A stretch of DNA of 13,464 nt from an uncultured delta proteobacterium (GTDB taxonomy: Bacteria; Desulfobacterota; RBG-13-43-22), in assembly GCA_963802945.1 (NCBI GenBank), contig CAWDKY010000008.1, positions 1-13,464 on the forward strand, read 5' to 3'. A program made the position numbers and the translations under genes. This document shows, in pieces, positions 9,577-13,463 of this stretch (positions are counted from its first letter, which is position 1; every line of letters begins with the position of its first letter). The notes under the pieces are model-generated. The model saw nothing but the letters and a program-made list of their open reading frames with translations, searched no databases and was not told the origin of the DNA.

Positions 9577-10542
9577 CCTGTTTCAAATGGACTGGCGTCT
9601 TATAATAAAGTATTTTATATTGGTTGTTGGTCAAGAGAGTAACTGTTGCCCTGACCGCATAGCCCGATTGGGGTTTATCTTTGTATCCCGACGATTCAAT
9701 GGTGAACGTATTGCTATCGCTTCCATAATGAATAGTCATACTGAGGGCATACATCAAGGCCTGAATTTTGATCCCGGTTCCGCCGATCTCCTGGATGCTT
9801 TTTATATCTTGTTGTTGTCGATAGGCGATGATCTCATCAACCATATCCGTCGTCATCCCCGGAAAGGCCATCAAGACTTCTTTGGAGGCGGCATTGACAT
9901 TGATCGCATTCGGTGTCCCATAAACGGTCAGAAAATCGATTAACCCCTTTTTCCCCCGTTTCCATAAAGGAGTCCCCGGGTCACCCCTTTAACCAATAAG
10001 AGTTCCTCCAAGGTATCAAAATCGGCATTCTTGGCTTTATAGGGATTGGGCAACGAAAGGTAGTAGTCGGATTTGGCCCCATTCAAACGGCGCAAATCAC
10101 CCTTTTCCCTCCAATCCAAAATGGAGTCCACAACCGTATCTACGTCTATTCCTTCAATACCCATGATCTCGATAAGCTTCCTGAGGACTATCTCCGGGGC
10201 CGAATTAATATTTATTTTACCTGATTCATCGCTTATCTTGACGACATAGTTTCCAGCCCCTAATTGACCGGAATAAGGGCGGCCATCTATTTTCCACATC
10301 TCTCCACCTTCAACCAGGTCCTTAATCACGGAAAGCTGCATCTTTTGTCTGTAAAAGAGCTCACAAACCCCTCGTTCGATCCCCGCTTCGGCCAGGAATC
10401 TTTTTTCCATCCCCTCTTTGAAGGATAAGGTGGACAGAGTCTCGGTCCGGGCCATATAGGAGAAAGAAAAAACAATGACCATTAGGACCGCTAAAACCCA
10501 TAAAACGGTCAGTAAGGCAATACCTTTTTGATTCTTACTCAT
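9557..10542 (-). pseudogene. gspK: T2SS minor pseudopilin GspK, split by a 1-nt frameshift at 9944-9957
   Basis: KG|IALLTVLWVL, DESGKININ, DSILDWRE and ELLLVKGV in the first frame. The -1 frame continues GLIDFLTVYGTPNAINVNAASKEVLMAFPGM. Adding one base in GGGGGAAAAAGGGG gives a 328-aa ORF. Confidence 0.9.
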
Positions 10543-10566: not shown

Positions 10567-10615
10567 TTATCCGTTATTCGACATTCAACCTTCGTTATTC
10601 AATATTCGATATTCT
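10567..10615. repeat. Degenerate heptamer tandem array (7 units, approximately WYATTCR) between gspJ and gspK
   Basis: ttatccg ttattcg acattca accttcg ttattca atattcg atattct. Confidence 0.85.
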
Positions 10616-10623
10616 CTTTCTCG

Positions 10624-11334
10624 TCAATTTTTGCTTACCGCTCCTGTGCCCTGCCCGGCCTGGCTTCCTAATAGTCCTCCTCCGGTTCTCATAGAAAGGA
10701 TCATGGAAAGGTCTTTCCTGTCTTTGATCAGGTGAAGGCGTATCTTATTCGGCAGAAAAGCGGCCTCGGTCCATTCATCAACCCATTTCCCTTCTTCTTT
10801 AATCGGATCCTGATAAAAATATTCAAAATACATCTCATCAAAAAGATCCAAGAGTTTTATCTCTTTTTTGTTTTCCTGTCCTACCCCGTTTTCTGAGGCC
10901 CAAAGCGTGCGTTTCCCTTGACTCTCTTCAACTACCCGGTAGGAGACGACCACATACCCTGTCTCGCCTCCCCAAATGGAATGATTGGTAGAAAATTCGA
11001 GAAGCGCAGGCTGTCCTATAAAATAATACTTATTCTCTCCGTTTTCTTCGTGGGTCAGAGGGATTTCCGATTGTATTTGGGCGTCAATCAGATTTACAGA
11101 GGCCCTTACCCGTTCCAGGGATTCTATCTTTTTTTCTCCGGCTTCAATAGAACGAAACCCCAGTCTCAAGACGGCCACCAGGATGGAAACCATAATCCCG
11201 ACGATGGCGATGGAGATCATGAGTTCCAGCAGGGTGAAGCCGAGGTTATTCCTCTTACCTTTTTTTTCAGTTATGACTGAATTCACTTGAATCCCTGAAT
11301 CCTCGACTCCTGGAACCCTCTGGTTTGGAGTCAT
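10624..11334 (-). CDS. gspJ: T2SS minor pseudopilin GspJ
   Basis: LG|FTLLELMISIAIVGI prepilin motif and C-terminal W...W...LPNKIRL. Lies between gspI and gspK. ATG overlaps the gspI stop. Confidence 0.88.
   Translation of the reverse strand: MTPNQRVPGVEDSGIQVNSVITEKKGKRNNLGFTLLELMISIAIVGIMVSILVAVLRLGFRSIEAGEKKIESLERVRASVNLIDAQIQSEIPLTHEENGENKYYFIGQPALLEFSTNHSIWGGETGYVVVSYRVVEESQGKRTLWASENGVGQENKKEIKLLDLFDEMYFEYFYQDPIKEEGKWVDEWTEAAFLPNKIRLHLIKDRKDLSMILSMRTGGGLLGSQAGQGTGAVSKN
11286..11317. repeat. Degenerate octamer array (4 units, approximately CYYGAATC) inside the gspJ leader coding region
   Basis: cttgaatc cctgaatc ctcgactc ctggaacc. Confidence 0.7.
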
Positions 11335-11756
11335 ACCGGTTTTTCAACCATCTTCAAGGTCGTTAGAGTCAAAAATTTTTCCTTATTCCCCTGAGTCCAA
11401 TAAACCTTGACTTCTATTTCCATCAGTTTCACTGAGAGGCTTTCCGACCTCTCCGACAAGGTATCCGAAACAGAAACCTGAAATCGATATCCGTTATCCG
11501 TAATCCCATGCCAAGTCCTTTCTGAAACGTCTTTGTCTTCCAGAACCTCTCTCATCTTGGCCTGGGCCTCCAAAGAACCGGCCACGTATTCTTCCGAAGC
11601 TGAAATGGACCTCAGGTTGGCTGAAAAAAGCTGTAAAACAACGGTGCCGGCCACTCCCAGCAGGGCCAGAGCAACCAAAACCTCCAGCAAGGTAAACCCG
11701 GCCGTTTTATTCAGGGGCTTCATTTCAGCCTTCTTTCGATATTCATTGTTCGCCAT
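11331..11756 (-). CDS. gspI: T2SS minor pseudopilin GspI (alternative start at 11723)
   Basis: AG|FTLLEVLVALALLG prepilin motif, about 120-aa mature protein, located between gspH and gspJ. Confidence 0.88.
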   Translation of the reverse strand: MANNEYRKKAEMKPLNKTAGFTLLEVLVALALLGVAGTVVLQLFSANLRSISASEEYVAGSLEAQAKMREVLEDKDVSERTWHGITDNGYRFQVSVSDTLSERSESLSVKLMEIEVKVYWTQGNKEKFLTLTTLKMVEKPV

Positions 11757-11773
11757 TCGATGTTCCCTATTCG
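11732..11773. repeat. Degenerate heptamer array (6 units) overlapping the gspI start
   Basis: tctttcg atattca ttgttcg ccattcg atgttcc ctattcg. Confidence 0.8.
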
Positions 11774-11904
11774 ATGACTTCGTAAAAAGAAGTCATTCCC
11801 GCACACGCGGGAATCCAGGCCCTGCGTAACCAATTAAAAACACTGGATTCCCGTTTTCACGGGAATGACGAAAATGGATTTCGTCGACTTTTTGCGGGTT
11901 CATC
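11773..11904. mobile_element. 132-bp MITE/REP-like palindromic element with two ATTCCC-N8-GGGAAT (dRS3-like) units
   Basis: Imperfect terminal IRs GATGACTTCGTAAAAAG / CTTTTTGCGGGTTCATC. ATTCCC-gcacacgc-GGGAAT at 11795-11814 and ATTCCC-gttttcac-GGGAAT at 11847-11866, arranged as GTCATTCCCG...ATCCAG / CTGGATT...CGGGAATGAC. Confidence 0.85.
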
Positions 11905-11943: not shown

Positions 11944-12423
11944 TCACCGGGTAACTACTGCCCCGAGTAAAGGGTCCAGCTCGATTCTTATGACCCTTTT
12001 TTTATTGGACAATTGAAATTGAGCGCTGTCCATACCCCAATTCGATTCAAAAACCAGCCGATATTGCCCGCTCCGAACCTCTTCCCCTGTTGAATCTACT
12101 ATTTTGAGTTCCAAATGGGAAGGGATTTTCTTGACCGGTCGCCCTTCAATTCCATATTCTTTCGAGTCCAGATTAACGGACCATCCTTGTTGTCCCCCAT
12201 GAATTTTGGCCAAATCACGGGCCTGTCTCAGTGTAGCTGAAAATTCCCTGGCCGTTGCCTGGAGCTTGGCCGAAGACAGAAGGTTGGCAAAAGAGACCGT
12301 CACCAATCCCAGGATCAGCAGGCTTAACAACAAGACAATGATCAATTCCAGCAGGGTAAAACCGGATGGATTTTTAATTAATTTTTTCGAATATTGAATA
12401 TCGAACACCGAATTTCGAATCAT
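11944..12423 (-). CDS. gspH: T2SS minor pseudopilin GspH (FimT/GspH-like)
   Basis: SG|FTLLELIIVLLL; LQATAREFSATLRQARDLA helix; lies upstream of gspI. Confidence 0.88.
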   Translation of the reverse strand: MIRNSVFDIQYSKKLIKNPSGFTLLELIIVLLLSLLILGLVTVSFANLLSSAKLQATAREFSATLRQARDLAKIHGGQQGWSVNLDSKEYGIEGRPVKKIPSHLELKIVDSTGEEVRSGQYRLVFESNWGMDSAQFQLSNKKRVIRIELDPLLGAVVTR

Positions 12424-12429
12424 GAAATT
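12388..12429. repeat. Heptamer array (6 units, opposite orientation, approximately YGAATRW) forming the gspH start and leader
   Basis: cgaatat tgaatat cgaacac cgaattt cgaatca tgaaatt. Confidence 0.85.
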
Positions 12430-12796
12430 ATCTACTCTTCTTTTTTGCTGTCTGAATACTTTTTACAAAAATTGATATTAATTCGTTGTTTTCATTGATT
12501 AGAGACTTAAGTTTTCTTTGTTGAATCAGTTTTGCCTTTTCGATCATTAACAGCCATATTCTTGTTTCCCTCAATTCCTTAAGACAAATTTTCATCTTAT
12601 GGATAAAATCAACTCGAGATTCTGCACCTTGGGCTTCTCCATAATTGGAAGCCGGAGAGGTGCCGCAACGAATGAGTTGCCCGGAAATATGATTACCGGT
12701 TCTTGTTTTTGGTAACGATTCAACTTCTGTAATTATTTGAACGGCGAAATGAATCAATCGTTCTTCAAGATCAAATATTTTTTCTTCCTTCAACAT
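12428..12796 (-). CDS. Four-helix-bundle protein (23S rRNA IVP / TIGR02436-type family)
   Basis: 122 aa with the family pattern DLEERLIHFA...LPK...QLIRCGTSPASNYGEAQGAESRVDFIHKMKICLKELRETRIWL...ENNELISI. Confidence 0.93.
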   Translation of the reverse strand: MLKEEKIFDLEERLIHFAVQIITEVESLPKTRTGNHISGQLIRCGTSPASNYGEAQGAESRVDFIHKMKICLKELRETRIWLLMIEKAKLIQQRKLKSLINENNELISIFVKSIQTAKKKSR

Positions 12797-12806
12797 TCGT
12801 TATTCG
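12786..12806. repeat. Short heptamer array containing the four-helix-bundle start codon
   Basis: tccttca acattcg ttattcg; the minus strand reads cgaataa cgaATGt tgaagga. Confidence 0.7.
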
Positions 12807-12834
12807 AAATACTTGCTAACTTTTTTAACTCTTT

Positions 12835-12920
12835 AATATTGAAGATCGAACTCCGAATATCGAATCAGGAAGTTTTTTCACTTCGATATTCAACATTCAA
12901 TATTCAAAATTCGACATTCT
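12835..12920. repeat. Inverted pair of heptamer arrays forming a long imperfect palindrome
   Basis: aatat tgaagat cgaactc cgaatat cgaatca ggaagt [tttttc] acttcg atattca acattca atattca aaattcg acattct. Confidence 0.88.
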
Positions 12921-12935
12921 ATTTGCATGGTCTTT

Positions 12936-13463
12936 TTAAAAAGGAAGATCCGTGATACTGAAAATAGCCATCAGCATGGACAAAACAATAAAGCCGATGA
13001 TCAATCCCATCACTAAGATCATCGCCGGTTCCAGAAAGCTGATAAACCTTTTTATGGAGACCCGCAAACTTTTTTCATAAGTGGCCGCCACCTTCAACAA
13101 CATATCGTCCAATTGACCGGTCTCCTCCCCCACCTTGATCATGGATAAGGCCAGGGGGGGGAACACCTTGGAAGCGGAAAGCGGCAGGGCCATGCCCTTG
13201 CCTTCTTTCACCCCGGTTGACACTTCCTCTAAGGCGGAAGCAATCACCTGATTACTGACTACGTCCCGTGCATTTCTTATGGCCTGCAGCAATGGGACCC
13301 CGCTCTTGATCAGGGTGCCCAAGGTCCGGCAAAAACGGGCGGTCTCCAACTTTCGGATGATATCTCCAACCAATTTAAGTTTTAAACCGTCCCATCGAAA
13401 CCGACCCTGTTCCGATTTAGTGTAGGTCCGGAATAGAAGCCAGACGAAAACAATCAACATTAG
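12936..13463 (-). CDS. gspF: T2SS inner-membrane platform protein GspF, C-terminal part (5' end outside window)
   Basis: ARFCRTLGTLIKSGVPLLQA, MIKVGEETGQLDDML and LEPAMILVMG motifs. Frame is open to the window end. Confidence 0.96.
   Translation of the reverse strand, partial: LMLIVFVWLLFRTYTKSEQGRFRWDGLKLKLVGDIIRKLETARFCRTLGTLIKSGVPLLQAIRNARDVVSNQVIASALEEVSTGVKEGKGMALPLSASKVFPPLALSMIKVGEETGQLDDMLLKVAATYEKSLRVSIKRFISFLEPAMILVMGLIIGFIVLSMLMAIFSITDLPF

Follow-up and report, generated by a model that had tools for sequence, protein, structure and literature searches.

Why does a gene for a small four-helix-bundle protein lie between inverted arrays of heptamers inside a type II secretion operon, next to a palindrome of the same heptamers that encloses no gene? 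The arrangement is found between gspF and a gspH-like gene on contig CAWDKY010000008.1 (assembly GCA_963802945.1) of an uncultured delta proteobacterium. The whole 13.5-kb contig was analysed and is called the window below; its source is a 4.37-Mb metagenome-assembled genome in 72 contigs, with a marker-gene completeness of 100% and a contamination of 6.7%. The gene, P0001, belongs to PF05635/TIGR02436, structures of which have been solved since 2006-2007. To our knowledge, the family is very large and its function is not known, and the origin of the rRNA intervening sequences (IVS) that carry members of it has been open since about 1990. A preliminary description of the locus regarded the palindrome as an unoccupied target at whose centre the gene had been inserted. 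The analysis reverses this direction: the segment 12387-12809 is probably a compact element composed of the PF05635 gene and its own inverted arms, and 12835-12921 a second copy of the same family from which nearly the whole open reading frame (ORF) is missing.

Architecture of the element

The inverted heptamer arms around the gene and the gene-less palindrome beside it were recovered both in the sequence and in a repeat search (Table 1). A pattern of two successive units has 18 matches in the window against 1.49 expected, a number reached in none of 200 shuffles, and the four arms, A1 to A4, match one another in inverted orientation in several combinations: 12387-12419 with 12882-12914 (33 nt, 79%), 12835-12864 with 12882-12911 (30 nt, 77%), 12380-12405 with 12789-12814 (26 nt, 77%), and 12412-12426 with 12796-12810 (15 nt, 87%). 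The core of the gene-less palindrome is 87 bp long and has a short loop. The arms are read as belonging to the element itself and not to an insertion site; they are degenerate tandem arrays of a subfamily-specific 7-nt unit, typically in about 4-5 copies. A direct repeat described earlier, 12390-12429 and 12835-12874 (88% identical, 35/40, 445 bp apart), was found as stated; it reflects family-level similarity and not a local duplication, because the genome holds 19 sites besides the arm itself that match the 40-mer 12390-12429 at 30/40 or more. The closest, at 36/40, is on a different contig, and the 35/40 match of the gene-less neighbour is tied with four other places.

The start and stop codons of the gene had both been placed inside the arms. 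This holds for the start codon, in A3; the stop codon (complement 12428-12430) lies at the edge of A4, 2 nt past the conserved ...ATCATGAA and 4 nt ahead of the ATG of gspH. That in-frame ATG (complement 12421-12423) is itself within A4, and the arm encodes most of a 20-residue leader. The gsp operon is thus left unbroken by the element, because the downstream arm gives gspH its start codon and leader. An in-frame gspH start inside an element arm is also present in a wider comparison (ATG in C8, G003 and G008; GTG in G012), always 20-21 codons from the prepilin cleavage site. An element arm can therefore provide a downstream gene with both start codon and leader, and recognition of the arms is of use in annotation for placing start codons that lie within them. 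Two candidate joints, 12420>12878 and 12426>12889, were considered as products of excision and rejected, their sides being only 25 nt long and corresponding to other copies of the family.

Paralogs and cognate palindromes in the same genome

A strict scan of the genome found 74 arrays of at least three phased TCGAATA-family units, compared with 0 in the shuffled genome, and a tolerant scan found 110 arrays at 82 loci, mostly single arms. Among them are 17 palindromes of about 85-95 bp with a common oriented consensus and a loop shared by many copies. The gene-less palindrome 12835-12921 belongs to this derivative family, which is spread over the intergenic junctions of the genome; gene-less copies have mixed orientation relative to the adjacent genes (crude ORF calls).

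The flanks of the paralogs had been proposed as a test of the locus. Of six PF05635 matches in the genome, five are framed by inverted tandem arrays, each with its own 7-8-nt unit (Table 1), and such arrays are also widespread at homologs elsewhere, supporting the earlier view of the gene as part of a discrete, repeat-bounded unit. A unit-blind scan of the genome with Tandem Repeats Finder (TRF) returned 2450 rows, in which 7 is the most frequent period (888 rows), and the array pairs are inverted in 80 cases and direct in 20. Inverted pairs 300-450 bp apart occur four times, and all four enclose PF05635 genes; a further 58, with loops of less than 120 nt, are gene-less palindromes. A unit at most one mismatch from that of a paralog is carried by 38 of these 58 (10, 9, 7, 6 and 6 per paralog, under a one-mismatch rule that blurs the C29 and C36 unit families), compared with 6.7 +/- 2.4, and a maximum of 14, for letter-shuffled units.

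Thus, inverted arrays of a 7-8-nt unit specific to the subfamily frame PF05635 genes, which are accompanied by cognate dispersed gene-less palindromes. In the literature searched, with curated-database family descriptions outside its scope, array-framed free-standing PF05635 genes and cognate palindrome families are undescribed, apart from heptamers in one rRNA IVS. The rule provides a concrete handle on the function of PF05635 and on the origin of rRNA IVS.

Homologous loci in other genomes and metagenomes

Two sets of 80 loci were collected, the first obtained by using the C33 paralog as the query and drawn from genomes in many named phyla (Desulfobacterota, Nitrospirota, Planctomycetota, Bacteroidota, several candidate-phyla-radiation groups, Elusimicrobiota, WOR-3, Omnitrophota, Acidobacteriota, Verrucomicrobiota and Atribacterota), and the second retrieved with P0001 from metagenome contigs. 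By eye, the arms in both sets are tandem 7-8-mers with locus-specific units. Alignment of the upstream flank with the reverse complement of the downstream flank gave a median score of 16 at 75 loci of the first set, compared with 7 in direct orientation. Cross-locus flank pairs averaged 8.9, and their 95th percentile, in a null inflated by the units that related loci share, was exceeded by 26 of the 75 loci, versus 3 of 75 for direct alignment.

TRF arrays were counted at the 107 homologous loci with room for control windows. They are present upstream of the gene at 69, downstream at 60 and on both sides at 42, while windows 450 nt farther out have arrays at 4, 3 and 0 of the same loci. The two-sided loci have inverted units in 37 cases and direct ones in 2. 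Array periods are 7 (66 arrays), 8 (60) and 9 (3), with a median copy number of 4.4 (interquartile range 3.6-4.7); the arrays lie close to the ORF, with median gaps of 15 nt between the upstream array and the start codon and of 3 nt between the stop codon and the downstream array. Upstream neighbours share the orientation of the gene in 108 of 128 cases, downstream neighbours in 110 of 137, and both do so in 77 of 111 (crude ORF calls).

The unit follows the gene subfamily. Relatives of P0001 (57-77% identical) have a matching inverted arm on both sides at 39 of 72 loci (upstream 47, downstream 46), and P0001-type arms flank both sides in none of 74 loci of the other subfamily. The array period in the P0001 subfamily is 7 in 41 of 42. 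A strict phased-heptamer count for this subfamily (16 of 75 on both sides) was dropped in favour of alignment to a reference arm; it was too low because canonical arms include GGAAT and CGAAG units. In the other subfamily, two-sided AGG-type octamers are found at 17 of the 30 loci with an identity of at least 60%, and at 4 of the 45 loci under that value. The 75 loci of the P0001 subfamily represent 65 different gene contexts; gspF/gspH neighbours were found at none of the 80 P0001-relative loci, and none of the 160 related loci resembles 23S rRNA. Arms and gene subfamily travel jointly, so that the inherited or moved unit is arms plus gene, which argues against entry of the gene alone into pre-existing palindromes.

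Table 1. Features of the element, its paralogs and the surrounding secretion operon (TCGAATA-family arrays unless another unit is given).
Feature	Position	Strand	Remarks
PF05635/TIGR02436 four-helix-bundle gene P0001	12428-12796	minus	122 aa; between gspF and the gspH-like gene; unit TCGAATA
Arm A3, upstream arm of the gene-bearing element	12787-12809		short, ~2.5 units; holds P0001 ATG (complement 12794-12796)
Arm A4, downstream arm of the gene-bearing element	12387-12426		5 units
Gene-less palindrome A1-loop-A2	12830-12925	minus	TCGAATA family, one of 17 genome copies
Arm A1, distal arm of the gene-less palindrome	12880-12921		upstream-type in operon sense, ends ...GAATATCGAAG; period 7, 4.6 copies
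Arm A2, proximal arm of the gene-less palindrome	12835-12874		downstream-type; 35/40 identical to 12390-12429
Paralog	C33:67732		unit AGGATTCA
Paralog	C29:192816		unit CAGAATC-like
Paralog C14:159932	C14:159932-160174		unit AGGTTCA; frameshifted near 5' end (pseudogene or sequencing error)
Paralog	C36:2858		unit GATACTG
gspF (type II secretion protein F), 3' part	12936-13463	minus	PF00482, E 1.9e-31; stop = complement 12936-12938
gspH-like N-methyl pseudopilin	11944-12423	minus	PF07963; G|FTLLE prepilin site 20 codons past arm ATG
Solitary heptamer array	11739-11774		overlaps start of the gspI-like gene
gspI-like N-methyl pseudopilin	11331-11756	minus	ATG = complement 11754-11756
N-methyl pseudopilin, also T2SSJ match (gspJ)	10624-11334	minus
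Solitary heptamer array	10568-10616		gspJ stop to gspK start
gspK-like gene	9940-10542	minus

Deletion derivatives and history of the gspF-gspH junction

Several copies form a decay series from full element to bare hairpin. A metagenome contig has the gene with a 147-bp internal deletion of the ORF; at the gspF-gspH junction, the arms in G008 enclose about 55 nt of the 5' end of the ORF plus its tail, and G009 retains the ORF tail beside a degenerate GxxExxY gene fragment. At C16:276606 and C15:227425, 3' remnants of a C29-type ORF lie between the arms. In the gene-less TCGAATA copies, GAATGTCGAAG and ACTTCATAATTCG are preserved, which in full elements form the start end and the stop end, respectively. 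The gene-less copies, including the supposed empty site of the window, are read as deletion derivatives of the full element and not as unoccupied targets, because the arms travel with the gene subfamily and partly deleted intermediates exist. The loop common to several TCGAATA copies suggests multiplication also as gene-less elements, and the differing loops of other palindrome families suggest independent decay.

At this junction the gene is of long standing, has descended vertically and has repeatedly been lost or replaced: orthologs of P0001 adjoin gspF in G003 (1529 bp colinear, 71%) and G007:C267, while other alleles are without the gene. Among species with the orthologous gene, the gspF fragment is 75-80% identical in protein. 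The gene is missing from G005 and from two near-identical copies of the operon in the assembly itself (C30:207277-207851 and C57:17898-18420 in G000, with flank identities of 95% and 91%), so that several strains or close species are mixed in the assembly. All three alleles carry a AGGATTCA-type octamer palindrome in place of the gene. The preliminary description had proposed looking for empty alleles in relatives; gene-free alleles do exist, and a clean empty site was not among them. In the C30 allele, gspH has a TAA three codons ahead of G(-1) and no in-frame start codon. Other species have further hairpins at the junction, with a GxxExxY gene replacing the PF05635 gene in G007 and the degenerate one in G009, and two metagenome contigs bridge gspF and gspH with different spacers of 102 and 112 nt. 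The exchanged segment comprises everything from the gspF stop codon to the G(-1) codon of gspH. Vertical inheritance, which had been named beforehand as speaking against a mobile cassette, is therefore what the junction displays, together with purifying selection on the gene.

At a second site, C34:83228, a gene-less element and an adjacent GC hairpin are present in G000 and G005 and absent in G008 and G012. In the latter two the stop and start codons of the neighbouring genes overlap, and the element supplies a new start where it is present. None of the public sequencing runs holds the stretch, the best share of sampled words being 0.12, and the one RNA run yielded a single contig, located outside the element.

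The P0001 protein

P0001 matches PF05635 (E 3e-16, 60 bits, cut-off 33.8) and TIGR02436 (87.9 bits, cut-off 24). PF05635 is its sole Pfam match, and no Y1 (HUH) transposase domain was found in it. The family motif is written GxxRxxxSxxxNxxE in the part of PMC3936711 available. P0001 has G-QLI-R-CGT-S-PAS-N-YG-E, in which the spacing from G to R is x3 and not x2 (G-x3-R-x3-S-x3-N-x2-E). Across 53 sequences, conservation is complete at E54 and E77 and reaches at least 90% at Q40, R43, S47 and N51. The dN/dS value of P0001 versus its G003 ortholog (75% protein identity) is 0.11, indicating purifying selection and a functional gene.

The AlphaFold2 model of P0001 has four helices and a mean pLDDT of 92.9. 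The top structures found with Foldseek, 2RLD (E 1.3e-6, TM-score 0.80; also matched by the P0001 sequence, E 5e-16) and 2GSC (TM-score 0.82), have five chains each. They are followed by Avd, the accessory protein of diversity-generating retroelements (DGRs): 4DWL (TM-score 0.73, normalised by query length) and 8UB7, a DGR ribonucleoprotein. The fold shared with Avd, as earlier asserted, is thus reproduced by the predicted structure.

RNA folding

Folded as minus-strand RNA, 12376-12930 has an energy of -135.5 kcal/mol (z -5.0). A1 and A4 form an outer stem of 28 bp, inside which the remaining two arms pair together, so that a stem encloses the ORF as in IVS. The gene-less palindrome 12830-12925 gives -29.7 kcal/mol (z -4.7) on the minus strand and -15.3 kcal/mol (z -1.2) on the plus strand.

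Comparison with known systems

The element is a non-rRNA counterpart of the ORF-bearing 23S rRNA IVS. In the accessible part of PMC4990558, terminal inverted repeats of 23S IVS are described as forming a stem that is cut by RNase III, with tandem heptamers, variable in copy number, upstream of the ORF in one case. Decay of the ORF by deletion and ORF-less versions of the IVS are mentioned in passages of PMC4990558 and PMC11270868, and PF05635 ORFs within 16S and 23S insertions of candidate-phyla-radiation bacteria in a passage of PMC11270868. The element and the 23S IVS of Leptospira and Coxiella (with an 'S23p' ORF) have the same protein family and an ORF within stem-forming terminal inverted repeats. 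By contrast, the element of the window occupies an operon junction in mRNA, between gspF and gspH, while the 23S gene of the genome is on C65; both of its arms consist wholly of tandem units; and each paralog has cognate dispersed gene-less palindromes.

In REPIN-RAYT systems, a single gene is flanked by inverted short repeats that are also dispersed as intergenic palindromic doublets, with one repeat family per gene copy. The PF05635 gene, likewise, lies between inverted copies of a repeat found elsewhere in the genome as dispersed palindromes. Unlike RAYT, its product is a four-helix bundle and not a Y1/HUH transposase, the arms are tandem 7-8-nt arrays, and any mobility is putative. Hairpins resembling miniature inverted-repeat transposable elements (MITEs), such as Correia and ERIC, are about 90-150 bp long, bounded by inverted repeats and located between co-transcribed genes, and arise by internal deletion of gene-bearing elements. 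The gene-less junction hairpins here also derive from a longer gene-bearing element. Unlike MITEs, the gene-bearing partner is without a transposase, and both ends of the lost ORF, start and stop, persist in the loops; no target duplication was seen at the one filled/empty pair compared, whose junctions have diverged. Cyanobacterial short tandemly repeated repetitive sequences are, as here, tandem heptamers dispersed in intergenic regions; we know of no description linking them to PF05635 genes.

The relationship of the family to Avd is treated in the available parts of PMC10053308 and 10.1101/2023.10.23.563531, the latter presenting Avd as a pentamer that contacts structured RNA. The likeness of P0001 to Avd lies in the modelled fold. 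In contrast to DGRs, no match to RVT_1 was found in the genome by profile search, and no template or variable repeats were seen in the flanks examined; P0001 has no match to the Avd equivalog NF033474, and its paralogs are far under the cut-off. Pfam matches include no integrase gene in the window, a genome-wide integrase search not having been made. The portions of PMC2672173 and PMC8700078 at hand contain nothing on the flanks of PF05635 genes.

Proposed mechanism and alternative explanations

A mechanism can be outlined on the established observations, namely the architecture and its generality, the shared inheritance of gene and arms, the series of decaying copies, the purifying selection and the fold. 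The protein, as a homopentamer, would bind the unit arrays with one unit per protomer, both in its own arms and in the cognate gene-less copies. The arms are probable cognate sites on account of their subfamily-specific units, the approximately 4-5 units per arm, the five chains of the homologous structures and the pentameric Avd. In the transcript, pairing of the arms may enclose the ORF in a stem of about 20-28 bp, which by analogy with rRNA IVS could be cut by RNase III. Full elements would have spread in the past by an unspecified route needing no reverse transcriptase, and would then have decayed by internal deletion to hairpins; translation of gspH may be coupled to the element, given the proximity of the P0001 stop codon to the gspH ATG. 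As a tentative extension, PF05635 proteins might be sequence-specific factors of widespread mobile hairpin elements without transposase or reverse transcriptase, the pentamer reading about five tandem 7-8-nt units per arm and each subfamily maintaining or mobilising its own gene-less palindromes in a RAYT-REPIN-like manner, with rRNA IVS and many dispersed palindromes as products. The units are in any case a candidate ligand of PF05635 proteins, and five paralog/palindrome pairs in one genome offer a natural test of specificity. An element of this kind would also explain PF05635 genes inside operons, such as the cas operons mentioned in a passage of PMC3936711.

Several observations weigh against a gene with its own arms as an element of this sort. 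The sixth paralog, C16:41197 (245 aa), is without arms; two-sided arrays were detected by TRF in only 42 of the 107 loci; 20 of the 58 gene-less palindromes fit no paralog unit; and G005 has TCGAATA palindromes without a cognate gene. Movement of the gene was never seen, the junction displaying vertical descent (G003, G007:C267; remnants in G008 and G009), and no target-site duplication is present at the one filled/empty pair compared (C34:83228 versus G008 and G012, with diverged junctions). P0001 is without a recognisable catalytic domain, and the link between five units and a pentamer is based on copy numbers alone. Pairing of the arms in RNA fares no better: the units of the two arms vary independently, G-U and A-C mismatches are equally frequent at 47 loci (150 versus 150), sense duplexes are weakly favoured (46 versus 29 loci, p 0.03), and of 30 palindromes in co-oriented junctions 12 fold better as sense and 18 as antisense RNA. 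Selection for sense-RNA pairing was accordingly not supported; the strong strand asymmetry of the window palindrome does not generalise. With no sense G-U excess, no sense bias of palindromes and independent variation of units, the arms fit protein-recognised repeats or DNA-level termini better than pairing.

The strongest competitor, though a doubtful one, is that P0001 is a domesticated regulator, a sequence-specific binder of RNA or DNA whose regulon is the dispersed arrays, including those at four gsp junctions, and whose own arms are autoregulatory. The low dN/dS and long vertical persistence of the gene would suit such a role, as would the one palindrome family per paralog, the TCGAATA-family arrays at the four gsp junctions and the overlap of arms with the start codons of P0001, gspH and gspI. 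A host regulon, however, does not predict arms plus gene in 65 unrelated contexts and in many phyla, nor repeated loss and decay, and the closest relative, G005, keeps the palindromes without the gene.

That the palindrome came first, as a target whose centre a gene-only cassette enters and leaves by recombination (as a 445-bp circle) or by RNA looping, the neighbour being an unoccupied site, is unlikely. The ORF does lie exactly at the loop position, between ...ATCATGAA and CTTCAACATTC, gspF-gspH alleles without the gene exist, the whole element is inside a further outer inverted repeat in three metagenome loci, and rRNA insertions at helix tips are reported in the consulted section of PMC11270868. 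Yet the arms go with the gene subfamily (39 of 72 versus 0 of 74 loci), the gene-less copies keep ORF ends and are joined by partial-ORF intermediates, the gene-free alleles hold a different octamer palindrome and not the closed-up original, and the gene is orthologous in species whose gspF fragments have diverged to 75-80% protein identity.

A retroelement-like cycle is very improbable. In it, a reverse transcriptase brought in by the Avd-like protein would copy the RNA enclosed by the stem, and repeated rounds on a short template would leave the tandem units as a by-product. Such a cycle would accommodate the lack of a visible target duplication at the one pair compared, and the fold and pentamer in common with Avd, which in the available text of 10.1101/2023.10.23.563531 acts with the reverse transcriptase of DGRs on an RNA kept in place by distal pairing. 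The route is unlikely here because the search of the genome, 100% complete by marker genes, found no reverse transcriptase; moreover, P0001 misses the Avd equivalog, and the flanks inspected hold no direct repeats of the template/variable type. Finally, chance flanking of the gene by common intergenic heptamer hairpins, for which the frequent solitary arms (at about 82 loci) and the arrays at other gsp junctions might be cited, is hardly credible and is contradicted by the four of four array pairs at 300-450 bp that enclose PF05635 genes, by the two-sided arrays at 42 of 107 gene loci versus 0 of 107 controls, and by the matching arms that flank homologs in unrelated metagenomes.

Other features of the window and further repeats

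The type II secretion operon, identified by Pfam search and from the ORF list, occupies the minus strand of the window, where it also includes a PilM/PilN-like gene and a weak gspM-like match; gspD is on the plus strand. A further repeat with nested inverted motifs (GTCATTCCCGC...GCGGGAATCC and GGATTCCCG...CGGGAATGAC) occupies 11776-11880, in the gap that separates the gspH-like gene from the gspI-like one. Two short stretches (about 64 nt, and about 200 nt of L107) match many places in five genomes of the genus.

A GC-rich hairpin, with CATGAG..TTTAG after it, stands beside the right arm of many TCGAATA palindromes, and its copies differ in the stem by paired substitutions. Examples are found at C14:52769-52918, C17:130034-130183, C33:42617-42766 and C34:83199-83348 (G000). 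The hairpin has no Rfam match: a search of the window and 10 loci at gathering score gave two tRNAs only and nothing at the hairpins. Heptamer arrays are also present in the spacers flanking the 23S rRNA gene of G000 (C65:16759-16834 and C65:20262-20334, the latter an inverted pair). The gene itself, C65:16891-20180, spans 3290 nt compared with a 2925-position model, with small expansions only in the first 600 positions, the part inspected.

An outer motif, CCCATAAGCGCTAAC(TTAA), is inverted around the whole element in three loci, L131, L132 and L154, and was also noted in L134, L144 and L149. It occurs upstream at 4 of 72 and downstream at 5 of 75 loci, gives a nested-hairpin look, and is preceded by other heptamers in one locus.

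Short repeats also frame GxxExxY (PF13366) genes of the genus (L013 = G007:C298, L213, L216, L217, L220 and L209-L212). These genes were considered as members of the PF05635 element class and were not merged with it, some having inverted octamer arrays (GCGCAAAG type and ACGATTAC type) and others direct repeats of about 30 nt, often together with an array and, after it, a hairpin with the loop TGAGAGG.

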